From: Bacillota bacterium
GTDB lineage: Bacteria > Bacillota > Clostridia > Acetivibrionales > DUMC01
Direction: 5' to 3'
NCBI GenBank assembly: GCA_013314855.1
Contig: JABUEW010000001.1
Location: forward strand, 24,377-88,376
DNA length: 64,000 nt
The notes under the pieces are model-generated. The model worked only from the letters and a program-made list of their open reading frames with translations. It was not told the DNA's origin and did no database searches. Below are positions 19,645-54,484 of this stretch, one piece after another; within the stretch, counting starts at the first letter, position 1; every line of letters begins with the position of its first letter. Both the position numbers and the translations under genes were made by a program.

Positions 19645-19686
19645 AAAACAACGGCAGTGAAAGAACAGAGTTGCGTAGTTAATTTA

Positions 19687-25158: not shown

Positions 25159-25286
25159 ATTTATACAAACAGCTTTTTGAACTGTTAATATTGAATTGCA
25201 TTTATAATATAATATAAAACTAAAACAGGCTTAAAAACAATGTTCAATATATAATTCTACAATCAGCAATTAACATTTTGTTCAAA
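25159..25286 (-). promoter_or_regulatory. Duplicated upstream region P2 (copy of 19523..19644)
   Basis: See P1. The core is 25242..25286. A third, diverged copy of the core (about 82% identity) is the real 3' end of the AraC gene at 25295..25340. Confidence 0.7.
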
Positions 25287-25295
25287 TAATAACTG

Positions 25296-27732: not shown

Positions 27733-29034
27733 CCCCCTGATTTTTTATAGAATTATAATGTAAGGGCAAGAATGACTATTACACCTGCCTAAGGTTGCTG
27801 TTGCCTTTTTTAAGCTTATATATATTCAGATTGTCAAGGAGCATTCCGTTGGAGCAGCTTTTTAGGGTGTCATAGTAGTTCTCATTTTCTTTTTTCTTGT
27901 TTTTCTTTGCTTCTTTCCAAGTGTATTTTTTATACCCTTATCTCTAATGCCTTTGCTGTTCCTGAAATCGTAGCCATATAAAATTCCCTTGGGCTCATGT
28001 AGAATATCGATGAGTGTATCCTGCGTATGTTATATCTGTCTATAAATTCAATCACTTCTCTATATCCCTCTTCGTACTTTTCAAATTTCCACTTTCCAAG
28101 ACATTCATCCTCAAGTATTCTATGAAAAGCTTCTATATGAGCATTTTTATCCGGTGTTTTACAGGGTATCCTCACATGTTCTATATTCAGTTCCTCACAC
28201 CTGCTCTCAAAAGCATGGCTTATAAACTGTAGCCCGTTATCTGTCCGTATTACCGGCTTATCCTCCTTTTCATACAAGTTCCTGCGCATTAATGCCCTCT
28301 ACAACATTATGACAGCATCACTGCCTTCACAGCTTAAGCCTATATGGTAATCAACCACCATCCTGTCATACACATCGATTATTGATAATATGTAGAAAAA
28401 CCTGTCTTCTCCGGCTATCTAACCGTACTTGATGTCCGCTTCCCATAATTGGTTCACAGCTGTTACTATTCGATTCTTCGCAAGCTTTCCTGGATACTTC
28501 GGTTTTATTTCCCTCTGAGGTTTTAGTATTCCAAGTTCTTTACATAACCGGTAACCTTTTTCTTGTTTATTATAAGTTTATATTCCTTTCTTAAAGCTAT
28601 GGTAAGCTTATAACATCCATAGCTTAAGCCGTCTCCTTCACTTAATTCCATGATCCATTCTTTTATTTGTATGTCGCATACTATTCTTCCATCAATGGTA
28701 TATGAATAGCCAGGTATAGGCCTCCCTCCATTTTGTTCCTTTTCCTCACCTCTCTTGGTTCTTTTATTAGGCTTGAATCCTTCTTCAATCCCTTTTTTGT
28801 CATTTTTTTCATTGGCTCTTGTTTTTTTGTACCCGCACCCATCTTGCTACTATTTACTGGCTAACATTATACTTCCTTCCGACAACACTGCAATCCTCAG
28901 TTTCAGTGGCTTCCTTAATGACTTGCTTCTTAAATTCCTCTGAATGTTTCCGTACTCTCATATTTTTTTCCCCTTTGCTTACTTTTTTATTATATAAGCT
29001 TTGGGTCTAATTGTCCAAATAGATTAGGGGGCTT
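27733..29034 (-). mobile_element. Decayed IS3-family element (orfA/orfB with stops and frameshifts); ends approximate
   Basis: orfA starts near 28955 as MRVRKHSEEFKKQVIKEATETEDCSVVGRKYNVSQ*. The orfB pieces read ...NQLWEADIKYG*IAGEDRFFYILSIIDVYDRMVVDYHIG...* and there is an rve-core fragment at 27930..28289 (DNGLQFISHAFESRCEELNIEHVRIPCKTPDKNAHIEAFH). Candidate imperfect terminal repeats are CCCCCCTGATTTTTT (27732) and the reverse complement of AGATTAGGGGG (29031). Confidence 0.6.
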
Positions 29035-34655: not shown

Positions 34656-34710
34656 CATATTGCCTTAATCGACATGTTTCGACATATTTCGGGTGGTGCC
34701 AGGCACCTTA
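34656..34710 (-). repeat. 55-nt repeat, copy 1, overlapping the last 15 codons and stop of 34665..35852
   Basis: About 84% identical to 36816..36870. Contains the palindrome GGTGCCAGGCACC and the direct repeat TCGACATGTTTCGACAT. Confidence 0.8.
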
Positions 34711-36814: not shown

Positions 36815-38797
36815 TCATATTGCTGCATTCGACATGCTTCGACATAATTCGGGTGGTGCCAGGTACATTATCCCGTATACATCCAATTCCGGTATTTCAA
36901 TACGCAAATAGTCTCCATTATCTTCTGCTAGAAGCTTTATATCCTCTTTACCGGGACTCATCCATATAATATCACTCACCTTTTTCTTGGGTTTTATGTT
37001 TACTAAAATTCCTCTCCTGGTAACCGGGTGAATAAAAGGAAATACATTAACATACCTGTTCACAATATGCACAGCCTCACCATCTTCTAAAATAGTATGG
37101 TTAAGAGAAATCAAAGGCATATTCTTTTCCATATAAACTGAAGGGTTGACAAGAGCTTTCTCCACCGCTAAAGCATACTCACAATCTGGTTTTCTATACC
37201 CTGAATGTATACCAATAGGTTTCCTTTTAACAAAATAATCTTTTTCTACATTGTCATTAAAATGTTTCCATCCATTACCTCCCCACTTTTTATTATAGGG
37301 TTCAAAATTTTCATCAAATTTACAGCATATACCTGAACTTATAATTTTTCCACCAGAATTTAGATATTCTTGTATGGCATCAAACCAAACTCTAGGCATT
37401 ATTTCAATGTTTGGTACAATAATTAGCTTATATTTTTCCAACCTTGTGGAATGTTCTTCCTTCTCTACAATTAATATATCATAGGGCAAATTCATATCTT
37501 CCAAAAGGGCAGCGCTCATTTTTGAAGGACTTATGGCTTGTGATGACCAGAGATCAGACCTCCAGGAGTAAAGAATGGCAATATCATTGGCGTCCTTCTC
37601 TACAGCATAAATATCACGGGCATGTTTAACATAAAAGTTTCTCATAATGGCCTGTGCTTCCTGAAGCTTTTCATCCTCACGTATATGAAAATCCCAGAAC
37701 TCTGCTTGACCACCCATTGCCCTGCCTTCAGCGCTTAGTACCTGGACCATGCCGGCTACAGGAGCCGATTCAACTGTGCGGGTAACAATATACATGCAGC
37801 GCTCACCTTCCCCGATAGCAGTACCGAGACGTAAACTAAAAACATTTGAAACAGGAGGAGCAGTATACCCTTCCTCTGAAAACACCATGTCAAAAACTCC
37901 TGACAGGGCTACAGCGCTTTGTTCGGGGATGCCTACATGTCCATTGGATGTAAAAATAATTTTTCTACCTATTTCTTTTTCAAGGCGGCTGCGTATCTCC
38001 CTACAAAATTCCACAGCTTTTTCAATACGCCATTCCAAATATCTCATAAACCTTTTGTTATCAACCCGCACCAGATCTTTAGGTACCTGGTTATATCCAA
38101 TATAATCAAACACTCTCATATCGCCAATTACCGTTTCCTGAATACCCATATCGTCAATAAGTTCACTTCCAAACTTTTCTTTATATGCATCCTGGCAATA
38201 TTTGCAACGACAATGTATAAATGGAGTATTATTATCAAGAAATACCCCATCGGCACCGGTTTTTCCTACTCGTATTATCAAACGTTCTACAAGAAAATCC
38301 CGCCATCCGGGTTTATTTAAACAGGCAAATCTTCGTCCTTCATTATTAAAGGCCCAGGCAAATGGAACCAGTTCAGCAGCCATGGCTTCTATTTCATCCT
38401 TTGAAAATGCTCCTTCATCAAAATTGTTTTCATTCTGATAAACAACTACCGGGATACCAACTGCATGTAATGAATCATTATACTCTTTCTCATTACGTAC
38501 ACTTTCCAAAAGCATTTCATTTCTTGCAGGTCCTTTGAAACCCAGGGTACCCTTTCGCCCATAATTATCCATGGCAGTATGATACAGAAGATTACAGGGA
38601 CGATTTGCAATAGATGGCCCAACAGGCTCTTTTCGTGCTTCATTTATAGTGCTGTTAATATCAAGACTATAGAGCATTGTTCCTCGCCTTAATATTTTCC
38701 TGTAATCATCCATAGTTGGGAAATTCCCATCATGCCATAAATCAGGAGATAATCTTAACCCATTATCAAATATTATATCTTTCGTGTCTAAAGGCAC
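36815..38797 (-). CDS. GH42-like protein, divergent paralog IV
   Basis: 660 aa, GTG start with GGAGGG RBS. Has FIHCRCKYCQDAYKEKFG (CxCxxC) and LIIVPNIEIMPRVWFDAIQEYLNSGGKIISSG (GATase1-like). Confidence 0.45.
   Translation of the reverse strand: MPLDTKDIIFDNGLRLSPDLWHDGNFPTMDDYRKILRRGTMLYSLDINSTINEARKEPVGPSIANRPCNLLYHTAMDNYGRKGTLGFKGPARNEMLLESVRNEKEYNDSLHAVGIPVVVYQNENNFDEGAFSKDEIEAMAAELVPFAWAFNNEGRRFACLNKPGWRDFLVERLIIRVGKTGADGVFLDNNTPFIHCRCKYCQDAYKEKFGSELIDDMGIQETVIGDMRVFDYIGYNQVPKDLVRVDNKRFMRYLEWRIEKAVEFCREIRSRLEKEIGRKIIFTSNGHVGIPEQSAVALSGVFDMVFSEEGYTAPPVSNVFSLRLGTAIGEGERCMYIVTRTVESAPVAGMVQVLSAEGRAMGGQAEFWDFHIREDEKLQEAQAIMRNFYVKHARDIYAVEKDANDIAILYSWRSDLWSSQAISPSKMSAALLEDMNLPYDILIVEKEEHSTRLEKYKLIIVPNIEIMPRVWFDAIQEYLNSGGKIISSGICCKFDENFEPYNKKWGGNGWKHFNDNVEKDYFVKRKPIGIHSGYRKPDCEYALAVEKALVNPSVYMEKNMPLISLNHTILEDGEAVHIVNRYVNVFPFIHPVTRRGILVNIKPKKKVSDIIWMSPGKEDIKLLAEDNGDYLRIEIPELDVYGIMYLAPPELCRSMSNAAI
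36816..36870 (-). repeat. 55-nt repeat, copy 2, overlapping the last 18 codons of 36815..38797
   Basis: See copy 1. The shared nucleotides are read in a different frame here (LAPPELCRSMSNAAI* vs PGTTRNMSKHVD*). Confidence 0.8.
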
Positions 38798-38887: not shown

Positions 38888-39928
38888 CTATTGGAATATC
38901 TCTTCACAATTCACCTCTTTAATGGTGTAGTCAGGGTATCCGGAAAAATAGATAAACCTTTTTTCTACAGGCAGAAACATAACACCATAATCAGTATATA
39001 ATCCATCCTCCCCCTGCTGTCTTATAGCTCCCTTAGAGCTTCTGTCATTGAGAAACATCATCATACCTTCCTCAGTTTTTGGTATAGAGCTAATCAAGGA
39101 TAGAGCATTCTTATACCTTTTTATTCCATTTGACAATATAGGTTCCTTTTGGGCTGGATTTTTAGCAGCCAGTTCCGAATCCAGTATGTGATTTGTATGA
39201 ATTAGAAAGCCTCTATCTATCGGCATTATTTCTGCCATACCATTTCCTGTTTTTTCTATTAACGCCATCTCACCCTTTGCATCACCCAAAATAAGGCTGA
39301 AACCATAATAGCTCAAATTGATACTCTTTAAGTATGACACTGCTTCTTTAACTGTTTTACATCGTGGAAGTATTGTATGAAGGGCATCAAGAGACATAAA
39401 CCCATCTTCCCCCGTTTCAACCCCAGGTATACCGGTCATGCCCATCGCCAGGCCGCACTCATTCATTCCCGCAGTAGTCCATATGCTGCCTGCAAAATGG
39501 AAATGTATATGTTTATATCCCCTGTCAGGGTGTGTAATCTCTAAAATATTTACTCCTAGCTCTTCTTTGTGGATATCATCGGTCTTGCCTAATACAGGCC
39601 TGTTTTCCCGGGTATAAAATCCAATGGAGGTGCAATTTTGAAATTTAGAAAGAAGGCGCCAGGAAAGTATAGCCTTAAAATAGTCATTTTCCGGGATGTT
39701 AAGCCCTGAAGCTATTCCACAGCATTCTTCATACCCTTCCGGATAGACTCTTTGGAAAGCATTTTTACAGCTATTTAGTATATCTTCCAGCCTTTTTACT
39801 TCATATGCCTCTTCAAGTTCCTGGATTTTTGGGGAAATCCATTTCATAGCAATTGCTTTACAAGATTCTCCTTGCTGTCTTCCACGCTCAAAAGGGGAGC
39901 CTTTAGTTTTAATTTGAAGCAATGTCAT
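38888..39928 (-). CDS. Peptidase C45 / acyl-CoA:6-APA acyltransferase-like Ntn hydrolase
   Basis: 346 aa. Has an N-terminal KGSPFERGRQQGE and a candidate nucleophile in FQNCTSIGFY. Confidence 0.6.
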   Translation of the reverse strand: MTLLQIKTKGSPFERGRQQGESCKAIAMKWISPKIQELEEAYEVKRLEDILNSCKNAFQRVYPEGYEECCGIASGLNIPENDYFKAILSWRLLSKFQNCTSIGFYTRENRPVLGKTDDIHKEELGVNILEITHPDRGYKHIHFHFAGSIWTTAGMNECGLAMGMTGIPGVETGEDGFMSLDALHTILPRCKTVKEAVSYLKSINLSYYGFSLILGDAKGEMALIEKTGNGMAEIMPIDRGFLIHTNHILDSELAAKNPAQKEPILSNGIKRYKNALSLISSIPKTEEGMMMFLNDRSSKGAIRQQGEDGLYTDYGVMFLPVEKRFIYFSGYPDYTIKEVNCEEIFQ

Positions 39929-40014
39929 ACACTCCTTTTTGAAATTTTCTTTTTTAATACTCCTTAAAAATTATAACATACATATACCAATTTGTAAACT
40001 ATGGTTTTGCAAAC

Positions 40015-40259
40015 GGGCGCATTTTCAAATTTTGAAGAAAATGCTGGAAGTAACATTGCGGAAAGTCTTATAGAGCCTGTTAATCCGACGAGGGATAAGC
40101 AAATCAACTGTATGAGCAAAATAATTACATTAAAATATTATTAAATTCTATTCAAATTATTTTGCGAGTTTGATTTGCCCCGAAGTGAATTTACAGGCTC
40201 TTAAGACTTGGAGCATTTAGTTACTGGAAGCATTTTCTTCATAAAAATAAAATGCACTC
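40015..40259. mobile_element. MITE-like palindromic element, copy A
   Basis: About 243 bp. The two arms are roughly 75% self-complementary. The termini are GGGCGCATTTT... and ...AAAATGCACTC. The element is flanked by a perfect 9-bp direct repeat TTTGCAAAC (40006..40014 and 40260..40268). Confidence 0.8.
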
Positions 40260-40287
40260 TTTGCAAACTTAACAACGCCTGCACTAA

Positions 40288-41520
40288 TCAGCACCTTATT
40301 CTAATAAAGTGTGCCCTGGACTTAACAAAGGGATCCATATATTCTCCACATCTCTCTGTAAAAGAACCAAGTATCAGTCCATCTCTTGATACTTCTCTGC
40401 AACCTCCTGTAGCATAAATAGAATATGGATCATCAACAAGCTCCTCACTTAACGCATAATCCTCCCAGGTCAATCCGTTATCATAACTGACAATACAGCC
40501 AATTCTTTTTCTCTGTTTTGCCACATAGTATAAAGCCTCCTTACCCGGTCGCCTGTCTACGGCAAAAAATCCGTCAAATCCTGCAAGTCTGACTTTATTG
40601 CCACCAAGTTCATGTGCCAATATTTCATGGTCTTTCTTCCCTCTTGCAATATCATACCTTATATAATGCTGTTTCCCATTATAAAAATCATCTTTTGGTA
40701 GTTTAAAATCCGGATGTGGACTCGCCCTGTACATGAAATGCAACTTGCCATTAACTGCAATAAAGTTGGAAAGCCAGGTATTTAAATCAAATTCTTCATC
40801 CAAAGTGATTCTATCACCACCGCCATCTGTATCACTTAAAACCGGAAGCCTTATTTCCGTGCCATCCATGCGCTTCCATGTATAGCCTCCGTCTTCGGAT
40901 TTCATATAGTATATGCTTAAATAATGGAATGTCTTATGCATATTTGTGGTCCAGGCTACGTGCAATACACCGTTTTCATCCATAACCATATGCGGATACT
41001 CAAAGGAAGCTGTTTTACCAATCTCAACTATTTTTGCAGAGTATTTAATATTCCCCTCCACATCGATAGCATGGAAATCGCCGTTGTTAGGTATATAATA
41101 TAACATCCTTCTTTTTTTATCGTAAGCCATGGCAAATTTCCCACCTGCAGTATTCGGAATGGTTATGCAAAAAGGGTTTTTATACTTTTCTGATGCTTTA
41201 AAAATCATAAAACACGAGTTCCATTTCACAAAGTCGGGATATACAAGATACAGGTTATTTTCTTCATCTGTTTCTAATGGAGCAGGGTTTGTGGGATCTA
41301 TACTATCATAAATAACATGGAAAGTGTCTCCCTGGTCAGTGCTTCTTAGAAGTCTCCAATTCTGTGCTGTATACTTTTCATTTCTTGACCTTATATAAGT
41401 AAGAAATATACCGTTTTCATTACTAACAATTTTTTGATTATGGCTCTGAAATGTAGCAAAAGCTGTAGCTTCCTGGTCGAAGCATATTACATCAATTTTT
41501 TTCAATTCACATTTAGACAT
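40288..41520 (-). CDS. BNR/Asp-box repeat protein (sialidase-superfamily beta-propeller)
   Basis: 410 aa with Asp-boxes STDQGDTF, SEDGGYTW and SYDNGLTW. Confidence 0.7.
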   Translation of the reverse strand: MSKCELKKIDVICFDQEATAFATFQSHNQKIVSNENGIFLTYIRSRNEKYTAQNWRLLRSTDQGDTFHVIYDSIDPTNPAPLETDEENNLYLVYPDFVKWNSCFMIFKASEKYKNPFCITIPNTAGGKFAMAYDKKRRMLYYIPNNGDFHAIDVEGNIKYSAKIVEIGKTASFEYPHMVMDENGVLHVAWTTNMHKTFHYLSIYYMKSEDGGYTWKRMDGTEIRLPVLSDTDGGGDRITLDEEFDLNTWLSNFIAVNGKLHFMYRASPHPDFKLPKDDFYNGKQHYIRYDIARGKKDHEILAHELGGNKVRLAGFDGFFAVDRRPGKEALYYVAKQRKRIGCIVSYDNGLTWEDYALSEELVDDPYSIYATGGCREVSRDGLILGSFTERCGEYMDPFVKSRAHFIRIRC

Positions 41521-41624
41521 AAATTATATCCCCTTTTTATTTCAACATCTATCTTACGCTTCATATTATATATTTAAACAGTTCATTTATATATAAAATT
41601 TCTTAACAGGGTTAACTAATTTCC

Positions 41625-42440
41625 CTATATCTCTTGACTTTTTATAGCTTTAATAAAATCATCAACATCATAAACAAAGCCAAAACCTACGGCTATTGTC
41701 CATAAGGCAAGTTCTTTGCCTAAACCTAACCTTGCAGTTTCCTTATTTTCTACCGCAGTGACCGCCTCACGTATAGTTGAGCACATTATTCCATGTCGAT
41801 ACAGGTGCATAAACCCACCGCTCGAAAACTGGATACACCAGTTTATATTGTAGCCTATATAGATTAGATGATTGATGCCATAATGTTTACACAGCTTAAA
41901 AAGCTGTTTTTCATCCAGAACAACTTCTTCATCGCCTTGGGGTTTTTCTTCTTCAGGAAATGCCGATATTTCAGCCATAACCTTATATGATTCAAGGTTG
42001 TGTTTACCGGGGAAGCCATAATCCCTTTTAAATTCCCTTAAACGCTGCAATACCGGATCTTGTTCCACCTGCTCAAAACCGGTGCTTTCGCCTACCAAAT
42101 CTAAAACCTTTTTGTACCCTGCATAATCTTTACAGTACGAACTTCCCGCAGCAACATGGAAGAGTTTCATCCCCGATTCTCTTATTGCTTGTAATAACCC
42201 GGGCATTATATTTTTTCCAACATTATACGCCCTCGGTATATATTCGCATGCCCTGAACACTCCTGGAACCTGTTCCATTGTGCCGTAATTTATTGCATGC
42301 ATAAGCACGACTGCAGTTTTATCCAGGTTTAGCTCCAGGGTCTCTTTTCTCCAGCCGCCATAACCTTCACCAGGTACTTCAAGGGAATAGTCTGCATCAA
42401 ACTGCTGATAATAATATGTTGGAAGTTTTATAATTTTCAT
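41625..42440 (-). CDS. Isochorismatase-like cysteine hydrolase (tentative)
   Basis: 271 aa. KTAVVLMHAINYG and LIYIGYNINWCIQFSSGG resemble the isochorismatase-family strand and Cys motifs. Confidence 0.35.
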   Translation of the reverse strand: MKIIKLPTYYYQQFDADYSLEVPGEGYGGWRKETLELNLDKTAVVLMHAINYGTMEQVPGVFRACEYIPRAYNVGKNIMPGLLQAIRESGMKLFHVAAGSSYCKDYAGYKKVLDLVGESTGFEQVEQDPVLQRLREFKRDYGFPGKHNLESYKVMAEISAFPEEEKPQGDEEVVLDEKQLFKLCKHYGINHLIYIGYNINWCIQFSSGGFMHLYRHGIMCSTIREAVTAVENKETARLGLGKELALWTIAVGFGFVYDVDDFIKAIKSQEI

Positions 42441-42624
42441 GAGTCAAATTCCTCCTCTTTTCTTAAAGTCCTTTAATCAATATTAAGGCTGCCCTGTAAA
42501 TTATTTTCTATTTTAGAGCAGCCCTTAAAGCGTTAACCTAAGCGTCAAGAAATATTTCACCTATATAGGCTGGAGCTTAAATTAACGCAAATGATATTGT
42601 TGCGTAGCAAATTTGCTTCGCAAA

Positions 42625-44193
42625 TTACTTTTTAGACCTTTCATGTTGTGCTTTTACAATGTCCATAATCTTTTCAATACCCATTTCCCGCAGTTTTTTA
42701 CCAAATTGTTCATAATTTTCAAGGGGTTCGTCACCAATTATGAATTTAATCTTCATTTCTTGGAGGTAGGTATCAAGGTCTTTACTTACTTGGCTAACTA
42801 TCCTGTCTTCTTCCTGTGTACGCCTTACATACATCCATGACTGTAATGGTTCTAAATAATTCATTATTTTGTCAATTTCAACCCTGTCATCAGCTAATCG
42901 GTACTTATTTGCTACTTTCATACTTTGCCTGTTGGATATATTAAGCCAGCAGCCTATAGACCATAAAGTATCTTGCGGACTCAACCCGTCAGGATTTTTT
43001 AGTACAAAATCTGTGTACTTGTATTCATTACCTTCAATTTTATACGATAGGTTTTCAATGCCGTAATTGATTAAGTTGAAGCCTTCTTCACTTGCCCATA
43101 CAAAATCAAAGAACTTCATGGCCACTTCCGGTTTTTTGCAGAATTTTGTTATTTTAGCTGCTCCGGTCTGGTAATTAAACTGTTTGTAGAATTTTTGCCT
43201 TCCATAGGGTCCTTCCAGTATTGCTATTGTATATTCCGCATTTGGATCAGAAGCCTTAACCTGGCTGTACAACCAGCTTTTGCTCCATGGATACCAGGTT
43301 ATACCTCCTACTTGATTATTGCTTAGACGTGCTACTAAATTATCATAAGACATATTGATAATTTCCCTGTCAAACACATTTTCCTTCCACATCTTATTGG
43401 CAAACTGCAGATAAAGCTTCCCTCTTTCCTCTAAATAGTCATACTCTACTTCACCATTATCATTTATACTATAGAAGCCCTGAGACATATGCATATGCCA
43501 AATATTTGACAAAAATTCAAAATAATTACTGCTGCAAGCATATACCTCATCTTTCTTGCCATTACCGTTTGCATCCTTTTCCTGGAAAGTCTTTAGAGCT
43601 GCCAGGTATTCTTCAGGAGTTTTCGGCACAGGAATATTCAATTTGTTAAGCCAGTCTTTTCTTATCCAGTTTGCCTCAAGAGAAGGAAAATCATCCAAAA
43701 CATATGGAAACTCATACATCTTGCCGTCCTCAAAGGTCATAAACTTCTTAAGCTCGGGTCTTTCCTTCAGAAGCTTAACAATATTGGGAGTATTATCACC
43801 TATAAGGTGGTCAAAGCTTATTACCAGCCCCCTGTCTATAAGGTCAACAAGATTTCCTCCCATGATTATATCCTCGAGTTGTTGCCCTGCCGCATATTTA
43901 GTGTTAGCTACAGTATGAAATTCAGACGCTGGGAGGACAACCCATTTAATTTTGATATTAAGCCTTTTTTCGATTTCATCTATTACAGGTAGTTCTCCTG
44001 AAGCATAGCTTTTTGGCGTATACCAGTTATCCCATGTAAAAATGCTTAATTCCTCCGGTGGAGTCTTGGTATCTCCTCCTTTATCAACAGCTGTTTTATC
44101 CCCAGCTTTTTCCCCATCCTTCTTGGAACATCCTGTAAATGATAGGGAAAGAATCATAACAAGACATAGTAGAATAACTAAAAGTTTTTTCAT
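42625..44193 (-). CDS. Extracellular solute-binding lipoprotein (ABC importer 2)
   Basis: 522 aa. MKKLLVILLCLVMILSLSFTGCS is a signal peptide with lipobox. Confidence 0.85.
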   Translation of the reverse strand: MKKLLVILLCLVMILSLSFTGCSKKDGEKAGDKTAVDKGGDTKTPPEELSIFTWDNWYTPKSYASGELPVIDEIEKRLNIKIKWVVLPASEFHTVANTKYAAGQQLEDIIMGGNLVDLIDRGLVISFDHLIGDNTPNIVKLLKERPELKKFMTFEDGKMYEFPYVLDDFPSLEANWIRKDWLNKLNIPVPKTPEEYLAALKTFQEKDANGNGKKDEVYACSSNYFEFLSNIWHMHMSQGFYSINDNGEVEYDYLEERGKLYLQFANKMWKENVFDREIINMSYDNLVARLSNNQVGGITWYPWSKSWLYSQVKASDPNAEYTIAILEGPYGRQKFYKQFNYQTGAAKITKFCKKPEVAMKFFDFVWASEEGFNLINYGIENLSYKIEGNEYKYTDFVLKNPDGLSPQDTLWSIGCWLNISNRQSMKVANKYRLADDRVEIDKIMNYLEPLQSWMYVRRTQEEDRIVSQVSKDLDTYLQEMKIKFIIGDEPLENYEQFGKKLREMGIEKIMDIVKAQHERSKK

Positions 44194-44331
44194 GATTTTT
44201 TCATCCTCCTTAAGATTAATAAATTTTAAATTTACGGTTAAATTATCTTGTTACAATTGCTGTGTTCTTTTCACCCCCTTTCAGTTCATATGTACTATTC
44301 CCCCTTTCAGCGATAGCCAAATTATTAATTT

Positions 44332-45204
44332 TTACCCCTTGATTGAACCTATCATAACCCCTTTTACAAAATATTTCTGAAGAAAAGGGTACACACAAAT
44401 GATAGGTAATATTGTAATAATTATTGAAGAATACTTGAGTTGTATACCATACGCTGCCCTTTCGTAACTTGAACCGGGTAAATCTCTTTGTACTTCAGCT
44501 GAAACCTCAATAAGTATACGTCTTAAGTAAATTTGTAATGGATGCTTACTCGCATCTGAAATAAATATCATAGCAGAGAAAAAGCTATTCCAGTGTCCAA
44601 CCGCATGAAAAAGTATTAACACAGCCAGTATAGCTTTAGATAGTGGAAGGTATATGCTTGTTAGTATTTTTAAATCACCTGCCCCATCAATTATTGCCGA
44701 TTCCTCAAGGCTATCTGGTATTGACTGGAAAAATGTCCTAGTAATTATAATATACCATGCGCTTACAGCTCCCGGTATAACTATTGCCCATCTTGTGTTA
44801 TACATCCCAAGCGTTGAAACTAATATATATAGAGGTATTAAACCTCCTCCAAAAAACATTGTAAAGGATATCATTATCATGAAGAAGTTCCTATGTATGA
44901 ACCGCTTTTTAGACAAAGGATATGCTGCAATAACAGTCATTATAACATTTATAGTTGTTCCAACAACTGTATACCAAATTGTATTATAATATGACTGCCA
45001 AAACATCTTATTTCTAAATACAATTTTAAATGATTCCAACGAAAATCCCTTGGGTAAAAGTAATATATTTTGCTTCATTACTTCTTCTACTGAACTTATC
45101 GACATACTAAAAACATATATAAACGGATACAAAGTTATAAAAGCAGCAAAGCTTAGTAAAATATAAATAATTACTTCAATAGCTTTATCAGATAACTTTT
45201 TCAT
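44332..45204 (-). CDS. ABC sugar-importer permease (LplC-like)
   Basis: 290 aa. Has ESAIIDGAGDLKILTSIYLPLSK and a C-terminus KYFVKGVMIGSIKG. Confidence 0.85.
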   Translation of the reverse strand: MKKLSDKAIEVIIYILLSFAAFITLYPFIYVFSMSISSVEEVMKQNILLLPKGFSLESFKIVFRNKMFWQSYYNTIWYTVVGTTINVIMTVIAAYPLSKKRFIHRNFFMIMISFTMFFGGGLIPLYILVSTLGMYNTRWAIVIPGAVSAWYIIITRTFFQSIPDSLEESAIIDGAGDLKILTSIYLPLSKAILAVLILFHAVGHWNSFFSAMIFISDASKHPLQIYLRRILIEVSAEVQRDLPGSSYERAAYGIQLKYSSIIITILPIICVYPFLQKYFVKGVMIGSIKG

Positions 45205-45219
45205 TCTCCTCCTCCATTC

Positions 45220-46188
45220 TTACCATAGAGATATTTCGCTTACCTTTTTACTTATTTTGTTTACTGTTATTAAAAGTATAAAATTCACTACAGAGTTAAA
45301 TAAGCCTACTGCACTGGCAAAGCTGAACTGTGCATTAATAATACCTGCCCTGTAAACATATGTTTGAATAACGTCTGCAACCTCATAAGTTGAAGGGTTA
45401 TACATCAATATTATTTTTTCAAAGCCAACATTCATCATTTGTCCCAGAGATAAGATCAACAGTATAACTATTGTGGGTAATATTGAAGGTATAGATATGT
45501 TTACAATTTTTCGAAATCTTCCGGCCCCATCTATTTCTGCAGCCTCATATAAATTTGGATCTATTCCGGATAATGCCGCTATATATATTATTGAACTAAA
45601 ACCAAAACCTTGCCAAATTCCCGATGCCACGTATATTGTACGGAACCACTTCTTATTCATCATGAAATGGATAGGCTCATACCCTAATTTCTCTAATAAT
45701 ATATTAATAATCCCGCCACTTGGAGATAGAAAATTAACTATCATACCAACTACTATAACAGTAGAAATAAAATATGGAAGATAGCTCGCGGTTTGAACAA
45801 ATCTTTTGAAAAAACCATTTCCGACTTCATTAAGTAATAGTGCAAATATTATGGGTACCGGAAAGCCCCAAATAAGGCTGTAAAAACTAAGCAGAAACGT
45901 ATTTCTTAATAAACGGAAAAAATACACGGATGAAAAAAATTCCTTAAACCACCTAAACCCTACCCAATTTTGAGTTAAAAAATCGTATAAATTTGAAAAA
46001 CCTTTAAAGTCTTTAAAAGCAATTAATATTCCTATCATAGGTAAATAATGAAATATCACATAATATATAATAACAGGTAAAAATATTATAAGCAATTGCT
46101 TGTTTTTCCCAAGTCTTTTAAAATAAGTATCTTTTTGTGTTGCATTAAATTCTTGTACAGATTTTCTTAATGCTATTCTATTTTGCAT
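45220..46188 (-). CDS. ABC sugar-importer permease (LplB-like)
   Basis: 322 aa with EAAEIDGAGRFRKIVNISIPSI. Confidence 0.85.
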   Translation of the reverse strand: MQNRIALRKSVQEFNATQKDTYFKRLGKNKQLLIIFLPVIIYYVIFHYLPMIGILIAFKDFKGFSNLYDFLTQNWVGFRWFKEFFSSVYFFRLLRNTFLLSFYSLIWGFPVPIIFALLLNEVGNGFFKRFVQTASYLPYFISTVIVVGMIVNFLSPSGGIINILLEKLGYEPIHFMMNKKWFRTIYVASGIWQGFGFSSIIYIAALSGIDPNLYEAAEIDGAGRFRKIVNISIPSILPTIVILLILSLGQMMNVGFEKIILMYNPSTYEVADVIQTYVYRAGIINAQFSFASAVGLFNSVVNFILLITVNKISKKVSEISLW

Positions 46189-46361
46189 AATGATGCATCC
46201 TCATCCTTTCCTGTTATCTGGGCAAAAAGAACCCTCCTACGGCTAATGAAAGGCTAATCATACCTATATACCTATTATTAATTCACATCTCAATCATAAT
46301 CATAATATCTTATGGGAAAAATGTAAACATACTATTAATTTTCGGCATACATTTTTTTACT

Positions 46362-48752
46362 TCAGGCCTGTAGTCTCGTTTTTAAGCAGTTGTTCTCCCT
46401 ATATTGAACTGGTGTTTTAAGCTCATACTTTTTAAACACCCTTCTAAATGTAACATCATTTATAAATCCAACTTCTAAAGCTATGTCTTTAATAGTCAGG
46501 TTTTCAACGGCTAATAGCTGTTTTGCCTTTTCTATTCTTTTCTTGTTAAGGTATTCTGAAAAATAAAGGCCTGTATTTTCTCTAAAAAATCTACTCAAAT
46601 AAGAATTTGAAAGGCCAAATTTTGAAGCACAAAGATTTAGGGAAAAATTACTATCAAAACATTTCTTATCTATCTCATCCAGTATGTCTTTAATAAGTGA
46701 TTGTGCAAAACTCTCATTCTTGCTCTTTATTTCTTCACAAATCCCTCTGTACATTTTTTTAATATAATCCATCATTTCTCCAAACGTATTCAACAGCAAA
46801 AGATCCTGCGAAACTATACTGTTGTCCAGGTTAGACAGGTTTAATTCCTGCAAAGCCTTTAAAGCAGTTGCTTGAAGATCATAGAACAAGAATCTCGCAA
46901 TTGCCAAATCCGGATTTTGTTTTTTAAGGTTCTCTTCTATTATACTGTCAAGAATTTCTTCTATTTTATCAAAAGCAGCAGACTTTAAACCTTCTATCAA
47001 AGCAAGCTCCTTATCAAGGGGATAGTAATAATGCAAGTTAGTTTCCCTATTACATATTTCATTATAAGCAATAACACTGCTTTTACCTTTTATAAGTTTG
47101 AAGTTCAAAGCTTTTTGGGCTTCTTCGTATGATTGATTTATCCCTTTAAAAATATTATAAGTGTTTCCTATACCTACAGTAATTACAATATCATACTTGT
47201 CTTCTATTTCTTCCTTGATTTTTCTCAATATCTGGTTTATATTGGGCTGCTTAACTACAAAATCAGAATCTAGCAAAGCAGACGAGTTGTTAATATTCAT
47301 AAGTACTGCTATTCTATAACGTTCCATCTCAACAACATAACTTGTGCATTTCAGGGTAATTAAAACACTTTCCAGCATCTCTTTTATAATCAGAATAATT
47401 TCAGGCATAACACAGTAGTCCTTTTCATTATTTGCTTTATTATAATTCTCCTTTTTATAATACTCTATTTCAAAAATAGAAACTTTATAATAACTGTACG
47501 GTAGAGATATTCCATACTTCAAAAAAATATCTTTCTGGTCTGTGTTGTATTCTACATTTCCCTTCAGTAAATTTATAATAAGATTATTTTTTTGAATATA
47601 GTTATACTTTTGCATTTCAAGCTGCATCAAATTTTTCTCATTTCTCAACTTTTTAATACAATTCTCAATAACTTCAAACTCCGATCTACATTCGTGTTTC
47701 GAATAACTATAATCGTCGTCTTTTAATATTGTAAATATAATTTTTCTTAGTGGGTCAAGAGATTTTCTTGTAACAAGTAGTACCATAATTAATGCAAACA
47801 CTATAGCTGAAATAAATACAGCAGTAAATATTTCCTTGAAGTACCCTGCTTTTTGCGTTATTAAGCTCAATGGTACTACAGCAACATATTCCAACTCATT
47901 TATATCCGATGGTATATGATATATTATATAATCCAGCCCTTCTATTTTATCCCTGAAAACATTAGTACTTCCCGTATATAAGTAACAATTGCTATTACCC
48001 TTAAAGTAAGGCAAATTCCCATGAGATACAACAATTTCATTCTTTTTGTTTAAAATATATATATTAAAATCACCTTTTGAATTAAAACTATTTAATAACT
48101 CAATTATACTGTTTGTTTTGGTAAGAATAATTAATGATGCAGCATAACACTTATTATACTTATACGAAGATGCAATACCCTGGATATATGCCATAGAATC
48201 GTACCTGCGTCCAAGATACGTAACTTTAAGATTCGAAATTATTTGAGAATCTTTATCGTTTTTTTGTAAAACATCTAAATTAAGCATATCCTTGTTTTCA
48301 ATTTCAAATATATTATTAAAAAAGTATTCTGCTTCTTCTTTTCCGGTAGGAGTAAGAATTAAACTCTCATTGTCCAAATACACAAATATTTCATCTATAA
48401 AACTGTTCACACTTTTAAAGGAAGCCAGTTCTTCAAACATAGTCAGAAAGTCTATCATACTAATTCTGCTGTAATCTATGCCTTCTCTCATATGTATTAC
48501 TTTATTAAAAAGCCTGTTTCCGCTCAATTGCATATTTAGCTTGTTAAACTCTTCAAATCTATTATCGATACTATTCTTAATACTGTTGATCAAGGTTAAA
48601 TGAAACTTTTCAGCTTCTTCTTCAATAATTCGGACTGCTGTATAATATATCATTAAACCTATTATGGAGATTGTTATTATGGACAAAGTAAAGTACGCGG
48701 TAAACTGTTTTATGAATGTTTTTTGTCCATACAGCTTTTTATAAAGCATCAT
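46362..48752 (-). CDS. Membrane-anchored AraC-family one-component sensor/regulator 2
   Basis: 796 aa with two TM segments. The C-terminal region reads LCASKFGLSNSYLSRFFRENTGLYFSEYLNKKRIEKAKQLL...FINDVTFRRVFKK. Confidence 0.85.
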   Translation of the reverse strand: MMLYKKLYGQKTFIKQFTAYFTLSIITISIIGLMIYYTAVRIIEEEAEKFHLTLINSIKNSIDNRFEEFNKLNMQLSGNRLFNKVIHMREGIDYSRISMIDFLTMFEELASFKSVNSFIDEIFVYLDNESLILTPTGKEEAEYFFNNIFEIENKDMLNLDVLQKNDKDSQIISNLKVTYLGRRYDSMAYIQGIASSYKYNKCYAASLIILTKTNSIIELLNSFNSKGDFNIYILNKKNEIVVSHGNLPYFKGNSNCYLYTGSTNVFRDKIEGLDYIIYHIPSDINELEYVAVVPLSLITQKAGYFKEIFTAVFISAIVFALIMVLLVTRKSLDPLRKIIFTILKDDDYSYSKHECRSEFEVIENCIKKLRNEKNLMQLEMQKYNYIQKNNLIINLLKGNVEYNTDQKDIFLKYGISLPYSYYKVSIFEIEYYKKENYNKANNEKDYCVMPEIILIIKEMLESVLITLKCTSYVVEMERYRIAVLMNINNSSALLDSDFVVKQPNINQILRKIKEEIEDKYDIVITVGIGNTYNIFKGINQSYEEAQKALNFKLIKGKSSVIAYNEICNRETNLHYYYPLDKELALIEGLKSAAFDKIEEILDSIIEENLKKQNPDLAIARFLFYDLQATALKALQELNLSNLDNSIVSQDLLLLNTFGEMMDYIKKMYRGICEEIKSKNESFAQSLIKDILDEIDKKCFDSNFSLNLCASKFGLSNSYLSRFFRENTGLYFSEYLNKKRIEKAKQLLAVENLTIKDIALEVGFINDVTFRRVFKKYELKTPVQYRENNCLKTRLQA

Positions 48753-48970
48753 AAATACCCCCTGAACACCCCTCTGGTCCCCACTTCCAAAAACAAATAA
48801 AACACATTAGTACGTTATTAACATATCTAATATCAAATTTTTTAAAAACTATTAGCTATACTACTTTTTATCACCTTACTTTTATAATAATATGTTAGTT
48901 TCTATCTGTAAACATATAAAAATTTCCAACATACAATATTTTTATTAAGGCCTATTTAACTGTTCCTTTC

Positions 48971-49750
48971 TTAAATAATATTTACTAATTTAAGAAAATT
49001 AATGCTTAATATTTTTACCTTATCCTCCTCACTTATATTCGAAAGTACAACATTTCCAAGCTGGTGGCAAGGGTCAAAAAATGGAAAGTCGCTACCAAAT
49101 ACTATTTTATCAGCACCAAGAAAATCAACTGTTTTTTCAAAAGCTCCCAAATAGCATCCCGATCCGGCTGTATCCAACCATACATTATCTAAATCCCGTA
49201 TTGCTTTTAAGATTTCGAGTTCCTGATTTCCATCCCATGCAGACCCATAATGGGCTTGTATAAATTTTATATTATAGTATTTGTCTGCAATAGAACGTAA
49301 GTTTTGTGCAGAACCCCATGAGTGGTTCATTATCACCAGTTTTCTTTGGTGTGCAAATTCATATACAGGTATATACTTCTTGCTGTCTGCCGGACAGTCA
49401 CTTAAGTCAGGATGTAGTTTGATTGCAGTCATATTGAGTTTATCAAAACACCTTTCAAGTTCAGGTATTACATCATTTTGTTCAAAAGGATTGACGCACG
49501 CATAGCCTAAAATTCTTCCTTTTGATGATTTTATTGCATCAGCTACCATATCATTTCCATACTTATAATCCACTTCCAGCCCTGCGAGAGAGGAAACACA
49601 AATTTTTTCAATTCCTACCCTGTCCATGGTTTTTAATATACCTTCAGCACTACTGTCAGGAATGTTAAACAACTTATAATACCCCAGGTGTCCATGAGCA
49701 TCTATTATCCTATACTTTCCTATAATTTCCCGTATTTTATTTGGCATCAA
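48971..49750 (-). CDS. Amidohydro_2-type metal-dependent hydrolase
   Basis: 259 aa with RIIDAHGHLG and IVFGSDFPF. It overlaps the upstream gene by 14 nt. Confidence 0.75.
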   Translation of the reverse strand: MMPNKIREIIGKYRIIDAHGHLGYYKLFNIPDSSAEGILKTMDRVGIEKICVSSLAGLEVDYKYGNDMVADAIKSSKGRILGYACVNPFEQNDVIPELERCFDKLNMTAIKLHPDLSDCPADSKKYIPVYEFAHQRKLVIMNHSWGSAQNLRSIADKYYNIKFIQAHYGSAWDGNQELEILKAIRDLDNVWLDTAGSGCYLGAFEKTVDFLGADKIVFGSDFPFFDPCHQLGNVVLSNISEEDKVKILSINFLKLVNII

Positions 49751-50513
49751 AATTAACCCCCTCCAGTAAATTCATGAGGTTTTTCCCAGCTATCATGTCT
49801 CTTTCATCTTCTTTAATATTTGCCAGACATACCATTGCAATGGGAGGGTTTGGACTGTAAACAGGCATCCCTGTGCCGAAAATCAATCTACCGGCGCCAA
49901 AGTTCCGCACCATCTTCTCTATCCCGTTATTAACAATGTAATATGATGTTTCTAGATACAGGCTATCAAATTTTTTAAACAGAGGATATATATATCTGTC
50001 AGCCTTAACACCCATCCTTACTAATACGAAAGGTAATGCCGGGAAGGTTTCACAAAAGTTTTTGATTTGTTCCCAGTTTATTTCTTCAGACCAATGTCTT
50101 ATTGAAAAATCTATAAACACTGGAATTTTCCTTAATTCAAGTTCAGAAAACAGGTCTTCCCACACCCAGGTATAAAGGGATATTCCATGAAAAGCAGGGA
50201 ATATCCTTACTGCCCTTATATTATTATCAGCGAGGTACTTTACGAATTCTTCCGGAGAAAGAAATTCTCCCGTATGATGGGGCATTGCTACAGCACATGG
50301 GATCAACCTGTCATAGTTTTTAATTTCTTTAAGAAGCATGTCGTTTCCTGTTTGTATATGGCTGTATTTAGCTAATGAGCCAAAAACAACGCATCGTGAT
50401 ATTCCACTTTTATCCATAAAACTAATAAGATCATTTGCTGTGTAAAAACATATACCAGTATTTTTTTTCCATTGTCCCAACATACAATTACTATCAATAA
50501 ACTCCATTGGCAT
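49737..50513 (-). CDS. Amidohydro_2-like protein lacking the N-terminal HxH
   Basis: 258 aa. It has the same length and C-terminal LIFGTGMP as family members, but EFIDSNCMLG replaces D.H.H. Confidence 0.5.
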   Translation of the reverse strand: MPMEFIDSNCMLGQWKKNTGICFYTANDLISFMDKSGISRCVVFGSLAKYSHIQTGNDMLLKEIKNYDRLIPCAVAMPHHTGEFLSPEEFVKYLADNNIRAVRIFPAFHGISLYTWVWEDLFSELELRKIPVFIDFSIRHWSEEINWEQIKNFCETFPALPFVLVRMGVKADRYIYPLFKKFDSLYLETSYYIVNNGIEKMVRNFGAGRLIFGTGMPVYSPNPPIAMVCLANIKEDERDMIAGKNLMNLLEGVNFDAK

Positions 50514-50518
50514 AGTGC

Positions 50519-52549
50519 TTATTCATCTCCATTTTTTTCGTATTCATCGAATTCATTGTGAACATGATCTATTCCTTTCTTTAACTTCCTTTCTTTAACC
50601 CACCTGTCTATATCGGGTAAATCAAAGTATTTAAGCATACCGGGGAGTATAATGCTCATGATATCGTACCTATCATAATAACGTGATTTTACCAAACTTG
50701 TAAAACTTCCTATACCTTCAACTACTTCAAGATCTTTAATGCTTTCATTAAGTGCTGCTGCAAGCTGAGCATATAAACCCTGACGTCCATAAGCATATAA
50801 ATGTACATCCCCTTTTTTTATCCCCGGGAACTGCTGTACTACTTCAATAGCTCTCAATACATCGTATGTCCTTAAGGTTGCCATGCTATCACCCAACCAC
50901 ATGAGATCATTAACCAATTTGAATATAACCCCGTAAAAATCAAGGGGCGGCATAGAACGGAAGGAATTAGGTAAAATGTTTCCTACTCCTGATGTATCAA
51001 GAACCATTACAGCTCTTCTTAAGTTACAAGTGTCTCTTATCCATTTTATATGAGGTTGTATTTGGGTAGTACCTCCATCCCATACAGCAATAGTTGCAGG
51101 AAGATCCTCTCCAATAAATTGATAATCTCTAAACAAAACTCCATAGTTAAATATACCCTCTTGTGTCCACCACATGCTTGCCTGCACAACCAATTCATCA
51201 ACTTGGGTAACCATTAAATGACGACAATTATATTCACATGGTTTCCTGTTATAATAGACTTTTTCCTTTAGCCATTTTATGGCCATTTTTCTGCGTTGAT
51301 CTTCAGGTATAGTTTCCCGCTGCTTCTCTATTTCATCAAGGCGGTTACAGTTCCCATGGTATATAAACCTTGCACCCTGCATTTCACCGCGGACCTGACC
51401 TGAGTTTGTACACCATAAACGGGAAGACTCTATTGGTCTTATTTCTTCATCTTCCTGTAATATAGGTAAAGTTTTTCTGCTTAGAAGATGCTTTGAAAAA
51501 AATTCTGCCGCTTTTTTGGCCATGGATTGAGTATACTTATGCGGTGAATTATCTTCAAACAATTCTATATTATCAATTTTCCCGTACATCTCCCAGAACC
51601 GTTTAGCTCTTTCAACTGTCCACCTGGTCCCTTCAATAGGAAAATAGTCGGATGTTGCCGCTAACACAAGAACAGGTTTTGGTGCCATGGAAATAATCAT
51701 GTCTTCGTGATCAAAACCGTATACAGACATTCCAGGCCATATGTGTTCCGCGTCAGCAGGCCCCCCTGTATATAAATGAGCTATTCTGCTAGTTATAAAC
51801 GTTGCAGGAGCTGCTGCAGCAATTCTTGGATCACATATCATCATGAGAGCAGTTTGTGTCCCTCCTCCTGAATTACCAGTAACTCCTATCTTGTCGGGAT
51901 CAACTTCAGAGCGTGTACAAAGGTAGTCTATCCCCCTCATGGCATCGTGCAAAAAATAACGGGCACTGGCATCTCCTACAGGCCAACATTGTATCCCCGC
52001 ATAATCATGCTCATAAATTCCCCATCTTACTGTTGTGCTATTAATAGATTTTTCGTAGTAGCTGAACCGTTCACCCTGACCTATTGGATCTTGTGCCAAC
52101 ACCACTAATCCTGCACGTACTAAGTATTGGCATACAATCTGATATTCATCTTCGTGTTTTGCCCGTTCATGATGCCCGCAAAGAAAAAGCACTGCACCTA
52201 CTGGATATTCAACTCCATCCGGTACATAAAGATTTGCTGTTACAAATACCTTCGGCCGAGACTCAAATATCACTTTTTCTATTCTGAAACCATTACAATG
52301 TATGACGCCTGTTATTTGCGGGTTAAGAGGTGTGTCACTAGGAGGAAGGCCTCCCAGTGACTCTATAAGCTTTTCTCGTATAAAAGCTTTTCGTTTCTCA
52401 AGCTCATCTATGTTATTGATTGCATCCCGGATGGCATTACCTGTACTGGCTGCTTCTTCAGTCAGTTTATATATAACAGACCGTAACTGGTCTTTTACAT
52501 CATAAAACCCGATACTAGGTGAATACTGTTCCAGCTCCTGTACTGTCAT
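50519..52549 (-). CDS. Alpha/beta-fold hydrolase (acetyl-esterase / S9-like) with a C-terminal extension
   Basis: 676 aa. The nucleophile elbow is GVTGNSGGGTQTA, with CGHHERAKHE and DPIGQGER upstream. Confidence 0.6.
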   Translation of the reverse strand: MTVQELEQYSPSIGFYDVKDQLRSVIYKLTEEAASTGNAIRDAINNIDELEKRKAFIREKLIESLGGLPPSDTPLNPQITGVIHCNGFRIEKVIFESRPKVFVTANLYVPDGVEYPVGAVLFLCGHHERAKHEDEYQIVCQYLVRAGLVVLAQDPIGQGERFSYYEKSINSTTVRWGIYEHDYAGIQCWPVGDASARYFLHDAMRGIDYLCTRSEVDPDKIGVTGNSGGGTQTALMMICDPRIAAAAPATFITSRIAHLYTGGPADAEHIWPGMSVYGFDHEDMIISMAPKPVLVLAATSDYFPIEGTRWTVERAKRFWEMYGKIDNIELFEDNSPHKYTQSMAKKAAEFFSKHLLSRKTLPILQEDEEIRPIESSRLWCTNSGQVRGEMQGARFIYHGNCNRLDEIEKQRETIPEDQRRKMAIKWLKEKVYYNRKPCEYNCRHLMVTQVDELVVQASMWWTQEGIFNYGVLFRDYQFIGEDLPATIAVWDGGTTQIQPHIKWIRDTCNLRRAVMVLDTSGVGNILPNSFRSMPPLDFYGVIFKLVNDLMWLGDSMATLRTYDVLRAIEVVQQFPGIKKGDVHLYAYGRQGLYAQLAAALNESIKDLEVVEGIGSFTSLVKSRYYDRYDIMSIILPGMLKYFDLPDIDRWVKERKLKKGIDHVHNEFDEYEKNGDE

Positions 52550-52594
52550 TTTTCTTTCTCTCCTCTTTTAAGCAAATTCGCTTCGATCCCGGAA

Positions 52595-53914
52595 CTATAT
52601 CAGGTTTATACTCCTTCCGCTTCTAGCTACATCTTGGGTTTCAACACCATACTTCTTCTCATATTCCTTTAATTCATCTACATTCCTTACAACCTTGTGG
52701 TAGGCTTCAATATACTGGTTTAAAAGCTCCCTGCATGGCTTTTCAAATCTTGGAGCCATCATAAATGCATGCTCTCTAAGATATTCTGTATTGGGAAGGC
52801 TTACCTTCTCAGTAGGATATTCCACTTTTACATGAGGACATCTCCCGGGGCAACCCTTTCCATAAGGTGTCTTTTCAAGAAAGAGAGGCGCTTCATGCAG
52901 GCGTCCGTATCCTATTGCTCCCACTACCACGCCTTCGGCTTTTAATGCTTTTAGGAAAGTCATTAATGACACTCCTTCAAGTTTAGTCTCATCATACCTG
53001 GCATAGTGATAACTATGCTGTCTTACGCCTCCCGGATATGTTCTCTGAGGGATAATACATTCTATATCCTTTATACCTTCCTCCAGATACCTTGCATTTT
53101 CTGACCTTATTGCATTTTTCTCATCAAGATATTTTAATTCGGTATTGACTATTGCTATACCTAAAGGATGTACCCTGTGCTTAAATCCTAATGACGTAGT
53201 ATACTTCCTGTATTCCGAGTCTTCCGGAAGTCCGCTTACCCGTTCATAATGTCCTAACGCTACTGCCCTTTCGTAATATTCATGGTTATTGGTTACCAGC
53301 ACGCCTCCTTCACCGGCTGCCAGGGTCTTGCTCCCCTGCAAGCTGTAACATCCTACATCTCCAATTATGCCTACTTTCTTACCCTTCCACATTGTACCAT
53401 GAGCATGGGCACAATCTTCAATTACACGCAAGTTGTTTTCCTTTGCTATTTTCATTATCTCATCCATGTTTGCCGGATTACCCCATACATGGACTACCAT
53501 TATCGCCTTTGTCCTGGGAGTTATTTTCCTCTTTATATCTTCAGGGTCAATACAATGAGTGTCAATGTCTACATCACAAAACACAGGTATCCCATGGGAT
53601 GCAACAATAGGAGCTACAGTAAATATCCAGGTAAAGGAAGGTACTATTACTTCATCTCCAGGTCCAACCCCTACCGCAAACAGCGCTTCGTGGAGAGATG
53701 ATGTCCCGCTGTTTACAGCTAATGAATATTTTGCCCCGATGTAGTCTCCAAAGTTTTTCTCAAATTCCCTTACAACCGGGGATGTGGAAATTTCACCTTT
53801 TCTTAATAGTTCTACTACTGCATTTATTGCCTCTTCAGATACCAGCGGCAGGCTTGCTGTTGATGAATCAATTTTCACTGCCTTTTCTCCGTTTAAAATT
53901 GCTAACTTAGCCAT
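52595..53914 (-). CDS. DegT/DnrJ/EryC1/StrS-family aminotransferase
   Basis: Start moved to ATG 53914 (GAGGAG 8 nt upstream; MAKLAILNG...). Has AVNSGTSSLHEAL, PGDEVIVPSFTW and YSLQGSKTLAAGEGGV. Confidence 0.8.
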   Translation of the reverse strand: MAKLAILNGEKAVKIDSSTASLPLVSEEAINAVVELLRKGEISTSPVVREFEKNFGDYIGAKYSLAVNSGTSSLHEALFAVGVGPGDEVIVPSFTWIFTVAPIVASHGIPVFCDVDIDTHCIDPEDIKRKITPRTKAIMVVHVWGNPANMDEIMKIAKENNLRVIEDCAHAHGTMWKGKKVGIIGDVGCYSLQGSKTLAAGEGGVLVTNNHEYYERAVALGHYERVSGLPEDSEYRKYTTSLGFKHRVHPLGIAIVNTELKYLDEKNAIRSENARYLEEGIKDIECIIPQRTYPGGVRQHSYHYARYDETKLEGVSLMTFLKALKAEGVVVGAIGYGRLHEAPLFLEKTPYGKGCPGRCPHVKVEYPTEKVSLPNTEYLREHAFMMAPRFEKPCRELLNQYIEAYHKVVRNVDELKEYEKKYGVETQDVARSGRSINLI

Positions 53915-54136
53915 TTTCAACACTCCTCGTTAGTAGAATAACTTTTTATCGTATGACTTTTTAATACCTACTCAATAAACTTAATAATTTAATGCTAATC
54001 TCATAATACTACATCCAGCAATGTACTGTAAACAAACATTAATTTTATACATACATTATTTTCATTCATAATTTTCATTCATACTTTTATTTGTTTTAAA
54101 TCAAATACAAGCTTAATTAAGCAAGTTTAGGACAAT

Positions 54137-54379
54137 GTGCATTTTATTTTTATGAAAAAAATGCTTCCGGTAACTAAATGCTCCAAGTCTTAAGAGCCTG
54201 TAAATTCACTTCGGGGCAAATCAAACTCGCAAAATAATTTGAATAGAATTTAATAATATTTCAATGTAATTATTTTGCTCATACAGTTGATTTGCTTACC
54301 CCTCGTCGGATTAACAGGCTCTATAAGACTTTCCGCAATGTTACTTCCGGCATTTTCTTCAAAATTTAAAAATGCGCCC
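54137..54379. mobile_element. MITE-like palindromic element, copy B (inverted relative to copy A)
   Basis: Its reverse complement differs from 40015..40257 at 6 of 243 positions. It is flanked by AGGACAAT (54129..54136) and ACGACAAT (54380..54387). Confidence 0.8.
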
Positions 54380-54484
54380 ACGACAATTGTGATTATTGCA
54401 AAAATTAATATTATATATTATACTTGTCTTAAATTAATGTTTTTGGTTTAACATTTTTAGTTGTATTAAATAAGAGGTGCAAAT

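Follow-up and report, generated by a model that had tools for sequence, protein, structure and literature searches.

The 64-kb window, by which we mean the whole stretch of DNA analysed (64,000 nucleotides), is occupied by sugar-utilisation operons, nearly all of which lie on the minus strand. Two of its intergenic regions contain copies of the same small repeat, referred to here as copy A (40015-40259, plus strand, 245 bp, full length) and copy B (54137-54379, minus strand, 243 bp, inverted relative to copy A). Several other repeats are present in the window. A block of two genes, with ORFs of about 690 and about 390 amino acids, is duplicated in tandem at 3599-6886 and 8088-11380, where the two blocks are 4.5 kb apart and share 70-75% DNA identity. 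An AT-rich intergenic repeat of 69 nt occurs three times (19579-19647, 25221-25289 and 25273-25341; 64-88% identical to the reference copy) and may be a regulatory site common to the sugar-utilisation operons. Finally, a 55-nt repeat is found at two gene junctions (34656-34710 and 36816-36870) with 85% identity. On the minus strand it forms a short GC hairpin (GGTGCCTGGCACC) followed by a doubled ATGTCGA motif just before the next start codon, an arrangement that may combine a terminator with an operator.

Copy A is located between the stop codon of a gene for a BNR-repeat protein (40288-41520, minus strand) and the promoter and start codon of an AAT-family gene (38888-39928, minus strand), and these two neighbours are co-directional. 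The AAT-family gene, for which an exact-protein look-up found no record, has a near-consensus sigma-70-type promoter at 39970-39998 (minus strand) of the form TTTACA-17-TATAAT with an upstream TG, which agrees at 11 of 12 positions. Only 8 nt separate this promoter from the target-site duplication of copy A. That duplication consists of TTTGCAAAC at 40006-40014 on the left and the identical TTTGCAAAC at 40260-40268 on the right, so that the perfect 9-bp direct repeat noted in a preliminary description of this locus is indeed present. From base composition, we estimate the chance of such a 9/9 match at approximately 1e-5. The left terminal inverted repeat of copy A (40015-40025, plus strand) is GGGCGCATTTT, which is also the family consensus. 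Its right counterpart (40249-40259, minus strand) appears as AAAATGCACTC on the plus strand and as GAGTGCATTTT in reverse complement, two transitions away from GGGCGCATTTT, which corresponds to the 9/11 match between the element ends that had been claimed.

Copy B was recovered in a BLASTN search of the 40006-40268 stretch against the window, and is 97.5% identical to copy A over 243 nt (E = 1e-117). When the two copies are aligned together with 50 nt of flanking sequence, the homology begins and ends exactly at the element termini, and the flanking repeats are accordingly not part of a longer duplicated segment. The consensus left end of copy B is at 54369-54379, while its right end at 54137 is damaged, with the last 2 bp missing or scrambled. 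This copy occupies the divergent intergenic region between a gene for a DegT-family aminotransferase (52595-53923, minus strand) and one for a ROK regulator (54485-55765, plus strand), and promoter-like sites of these two genes flank it on both sides. The flanking sequences AGGACAAT (54129-54136) and ACGACAAT (54380-54387) match at 7 of 8 positions; their presence beside copy B had been described previously. An 8-bp repeat of this kind requires the element to lack 2 bp at its right end, and the alternative of a 9-bp duplication followed by a 3-nt deletion at the junction is equally ad hoc. An nhmmer profile built from the full copies revealed no older, diverged copies in the window.

The repeat is not restricted to these two positions. 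A scan of JGI metagenomes with a sub-terminal pattern that is present in both arms of the element yielded nine further loci that carry the element or its ends at 98-100% identity, including eight from Ga0067045 and one from JGI12104J13512. The latter is the metagenome of a terephthalate-degrading methanogenic bioreactor (Nobu et al. 2015, as given in bioRxiv 10.1101/322537). The flanks are unrelated and differ at every JGI locus, and all junctions are intergenic, often only 3-100 nt from a stop or start codon. Together with the two copies in the window, the nine loci represent at least 10 distinct intergenic junction contexts, in which copies face either way with respect to adjacent genes and intergenic arrangements of every kind are represented.

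Most of the JGI loci are contig ends, with five running into the left arm (L020, L021, L022, L025 and L026) and two into the right arm (L024 and L027). One contig, L023, contains a full-length copy (609-880) that has no target duplication. On the left this copy adjoins a tandem 8-bp repeat, GAGTAATAGAGTAATA, and the sequence on its right resembles the 3' part of a truncated ORF. A deletion next to the element, or recombination of one copy with another, may account for the missing duplication. Another, L028, carries a truncated copy (3103-3203) that comprises the left arm only, about 99 nt, with GGGTGC at its terminus. Only a few nucleotides separate its end from the stop codon of a 228-aa ORF (2410-3096).

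By exact-protein look-ups, the genes next to the two copies are found on Logan contigs of run SRR6186653. This run is an Illumina metagenome from an aquifer 2.8 km deep, sampled at borehole 5P in Western Siberia, and the metagenome-assembled genomes (MAGs) of that study were scaffolded with MinION reads (PMC7509429). Because short-read contigs break inside both copies, the repeat could be seen as an artefact of the hybrid (npScarf/Pilon) assembly, in which one repeat contig was pasted into two gaps. However, Logan contigs assembled exclusively from Illumina reads hold both junctions as well as variants specific to each copy, namely GAGTGCATTTT, the right-end variant of copy A, in L019 and GGGCGCATTTTT in L018, and the independent JGI metagenomes hold the same element with other flanks. 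Since the short-read contigs reproduce both the junctions and the variants, the repeat is not a product of scaffolding, and we regard this explanation as almost certainly wrong. The same contigs, both from SRR6186653, illustrate how the repeat fragments short-read assembly, as L018 and L019 extend only 42 nt and 34 nt into the two copies. A single Logan contig of 13,958 bp spans exactly the interval between copies A and B.

Two of the JGI contigs permit the comparison of a filled site with an empty one. In L021, the flank to the left of the element ends in TTTTAATAC, and in L024 the flank to its right starts with TTTTAATAC, the two contigs being opposite sides of a single insertion. The L024 protein whose stop codon adjoins the element finds its best match in NSW90522 (HPY74_07565, "MAG: Firmicutes bacterium"), with 98% identity. 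On the contig that encodes NSW90522, L029 from SRR6186653, 59 bp separate this gene from the LigT gene that lies beyond the element in L021. L024 aligns to positions 4292-6821 of L029 and the reverse complement of L021 to positions 6813-10698, in each case with 99.3% identity, and exactly 9 bp, GTATTAAAA (6813-6821), are common to both alignments. This sequence is therefore single at the empty site in L029, and is present on both sides of the element at the filled site in L024 and L021. Neither a profile search nor BLAST with the consensus detected the element anywhere in L029. The duplicated 9 bp include the stop codon of the upstream gene, which thus stays intact.

The BNR-repeat protein of the window corresponds to NSW89110, which is likewise labelled "MAG: Firmicutes bacterium". 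Judging from the accession prefix and number range of NSW90522 and NSW89110, and from the presence of both in SRR6186653, L029 seems to belong to the same MAG as the window. The filled and empty states in two populations of one species show a recent transposition with a 9-bp duplication, and the family was recently active in an uncultured anaerobic Firmicutes lineage. The preliminary description had spoken of duplications of 8-9 bp. The longer figure stands, as 9 bp are duplicated at both clean sites, whereas the 8-bp case derives from the copy with the damaged end.

Comparison of the copies also defines the termini of the family. In the consensus, the terminal inverted repeat is a perfect 11 bp, with GGGCGCATTTT at both ends, and the arms also share an identical conserved block, TGAAGAAAATGCT, at positions 19-31. 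Because the JGI copies read GGGCGCATTTT at both termini, the right ends of both copies in the window must be mutated. These right termini carry a common G-to-A change (GCAC instead of GCGC), which suggests that copies A and B descend from a common source copy. The damage to their right ends further suggests that both would now be poor substrates for transposition.

The distribution of these mutations raises the question of whether the two copies could be the arms of a composite transposon with which the 13.9-kb sugar-utilisation cluster between them (40260-54136) arrived as one piece. The copies are inverted, their outward termini (40015 and 54379) are perfect GGGCGCATTTT sequences, and both inward termini (40259 and 54137) are mutated, which is the pattern of composite transposons. 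However, the outermost 9 bp differ, with TTTGCAAAC at 40006-40014 and ACGACAATT at 54380-54388. Moreover, each copy has a flanking repeat to itself, a perfect 9-bp duplication in the case of copy A and a 7/8 repeat in that of copy B. The two were therefore inserted separately, and a common source copy accounts for the G-to-A change at both inner ends. A joint arrival of the cluster between two arms is very unlikely for these reasons, which agrees with the earlier proposal of two independent transposition events.

Structurally, the element resembles a single long palindrome. BLASTN aligns it to its own reverse complement over the whole length with 69% identity, and an alignment of one arm with the other has 93 identical positions in 135 columns. 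Because the arms are about 70% alike throughout, either strand is able to form one long hairpin. The predicted whole-length hairpins have minimum free energies of -88.4 and -89.3 kcal/mol on the two strands, compared to means of -45.5 and -40.8 for dinucleotide-shuffled sequences (z = -9.9 and -11.7), and none of 200 shuffles folds as well. These values bear out the earlier observation that the left arm pairs with the right along nearly the whole length of the element. The absence of an ORF had also been noted, and there is indeed nothing credible, as the only overlapping frames encode 25-69 amino acids and run over the borders of the element. A six-frame peptide search, which was aimed at ORFs on other copies or at the end of a parent transposase gene, found no protein relatives of the element at E <= 10. 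Neither copy A nor copy B has a convincing promoter or terminator of its own.

A very stable hairpin on both strands, the intergenic location of all copies and the placement of copy A between co-directional genes, 8 nt from a near-consensus promoter, would also suit a structured non-coding RNA gene or a cis-regulatory hairpin, such as a terminator, an insulator or an RNase III site. Under this explanation, the copies would have arisen by ordinary duplication and the flanking repeats would be incidental. Several characteristics run counter to it. No match to Rfam 15 reaches the gathering score anywhere in the window, and the long hairpin is not followed by a terminator-type U-tract, with only one weak terminator-like site present internally. 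In addition, the element is indifferent to orientation and to the type of intergenic region, and its presence/absence polymorphism with a 9-bp duplication is a signature of transposition rather than of a conserved RNA locus. A primary function as an RNA or regulatory hairpin is consequently highly improbable. Inserted copies may nevertheless exert a secondary regulatory effect, for example on read-through from the BNR-repeat gene.

[quoted passage not shown] The element described here has 245 bp, which lies within the size range of about 50-600 bp for such elements, lacks a transposase gene, possesses inverted ends, exists as near-identical copies and exhibits insertion polymorphism. Its target duplication is 9 bp at copy A and at the L021/L024 site, a 7/8 match at copy B and absent at L023. 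Of the four sites with both flanks readable, two thus have the 9-bp form. In the survey of MITEAba12, only 40% of copies keep their duplication (PMC6382973). The preliminary description had identified the repeat as a MITE, and the copies in unrelated sites, the perfect consensus termini, the 9-bp duplications and the empty site all support this identification. We conclude that the repeat is very probably a 245-bp non-autonomous DNA transposon of this type, presumably moved in trans by a DDE-type transposase. The family is an undescribed one of a well-known kind.

Extensive hairpin potential and an intergenic location are also properties of REP/BIME-type repeats and of palindrome-associated elements of the IS200/IS605 type, which are moved as single-stranded DNA by an HUH (Y1) transposase. 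Elements of these types are not known to make a target duplication or to have terminal inverted repeats. The perfect 11-bp terminal inverted repeat and the 9-bp duplication observed here therefore argue against such an assignment, as does the length of 245 bp, which is far greater than that of REP units. No gene for a Y1 transposase is found among the annotated ORFs of the window. Membership in either group is extremely unlikely.

For the MITE, we infer both that it is moved in trans and what type of transposase moves it. In the mechanism we propose, both ends of the element would be bound by a DDE-type transposase whose gene lies elsewhere, and the element would then be excised or copied. Insertion would take place at a 9-bp staggered cut in AT-rich intergenic DNA, and repair of the resulting gaps would generate the 9-bp direct repeat. 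Duplications of 9 bp are made by IS256 (8-9 bp), ISLre2, the IS903 group of IS5, the IS10 and IS50 groups of IS4, and IS1. Considering duplication length and host phylum, IS256, ISLre2, or the IS903, IS10 and IS50 groups are candidates for the partner.

The window contains two transposase genes or their remains, and neither appears to be this partner. The first gene (13105-14649, plus strand) encodes a 514-aa DDE_Tnp_1 transposase that has only a weak match to the IS1182 family, and for which an exact-protein look-up found no record. On either side of it lies one arm of a perfect 15-nt inverted repeat, GTATGAATTCGAAAA, at 12931-12945 and 14856-14870. The element so bounded (12931-14870) shows no visible target duplication, and the left arm overlaps the predicted start of a neighbouring CN-hydrolase ORF. 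This IS1182-like element was rejected as the partner because its candidate ends are unlike those of the MITE and no GGGCGCATTTT with two or fewer mismatches is nearby. The second is a decayed IS3-family element (27930-28900) that retains a fragment of 119 amino acids from the C-terminal integrase core (27930-28289, minus strand), with broken small ORFs upstream. It too was rejected, as no GGGCGCATTTT-like terminus lies near it. The mismatch between the termini of the repeat and both IS elements of the window had been pointed out beforehand, and it is confirmed by these searches.

Wider searches also yielded no autonomous IS with matching termini, whether in the 64-kb window, the fetched loci or the collections of plasmids and phages. 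Among 185,579 species-representative genomes, a collection from which the source species is absent, the pattern GCATTTTNNNNTTNTGAARAAAATGC, itself a small palindrome, gave 17 hits. All of these are chance matches of 26-32 nt to the self-complementary pattern, five of which fall in a single conserved gene of Bacillus. In plasmids and phages, BLASTN detected nothing at E <= 1e-3 and only chance hits to the AT-rich centre at E <= 10, and a scan of viral contigs was likewise negative. In the full-text literature, the terminus string turned up only in unrelated primers. One exact GGGCGCATTTT, at position 56 of L025, was considered as a possible IS end and set aside, since it probably matches by chance, at the beginning of a downstream ORF (ATGGGCGCATTTTC...).

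Three variations on the MITE interpretation remain to be mentioned, and even when taken together they are unlikely. The element might be an orphan that is mobilised by a transposase with unrelated ends. Alternatively, copies A and B might form a nascent MITE-bounded composite able to move the 13.9-kb glycan-utilisation cluster (40015-54379), or the hairpin might serve as an RNA insulator or processing signal between operons. If the composite or the RNA-level insulator were real, the element would be more than a passive repeat.

The wider importance of the finding is small: one more MITE family, not described before, in an uncultured anaerobic lineage of Firmicutes. This lineage occurs in the 2.8-km-deep Siberian aquifer, in the terephthalate-degrading methanogenic bioreactor, and in one further JGI metagenome. 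The insertion polymorphisms of the element can serve as strain markers for the lineage, and its presence explains why short-read assemblies break at its positions. The combination of the 9-bp duplication with GGGCGCATTTT ends provides a precise search key for the active transposase. Furthermore, the inverted copies that are 14 kb apart are potential substrates for inversion of the sugar-utilisation cluster.

Among known systems, the Correia/NEMIS elements of Neisseria, RUP of Streptococcus pneumoniae, ERIC of enterobacteria and bcr1 of the Bacillus cereus group are MITEs that form hairpins. They are intergenic, 100-250 bp in length and able to fold into one long hairpin, are often co-transcribed with their neighbours, and are thought to be mobilised in trans. 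The element described here resembles them as an intergenic repeat able to form one long hairpin. However, their sequences are unrelated to it, and they duplicate TA or a short fixed motif, whereas it duplicates 9 bp of variable, AT-rich sequence. MITE-flanked composite units, such as integron mobilisation units, likewise have two inverted MITE copies around a gene cluster. In contrast to those units, the A/B pair lacks a duplication at its outer borders and each copy has its own flanking repeat, and hence there is no evidence that the cluster moved as a unit.

A close parallel in general characteristics is MITEAba12 of Acinetobacter, which is also small, AT-rich and non-coding, with short inverted termini, a 9-bp duplication and many copies (PMC6382973). 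MITEAba12 has a known partner and an Acinetobacter host, whereas the element reported here resides in uncultured anaerobic Firmicutes and no partner for it was found in our searches. MITEAba12 is 113 bp long and has 16-bp repeats that match those of the co-resident ISAba12, in contrast to the 245 bp and different terminal sequence of the present element (PMC6382973). Finally, the element is palindromic over its whole length, a feature that is not described for MITEAba12 in that report.
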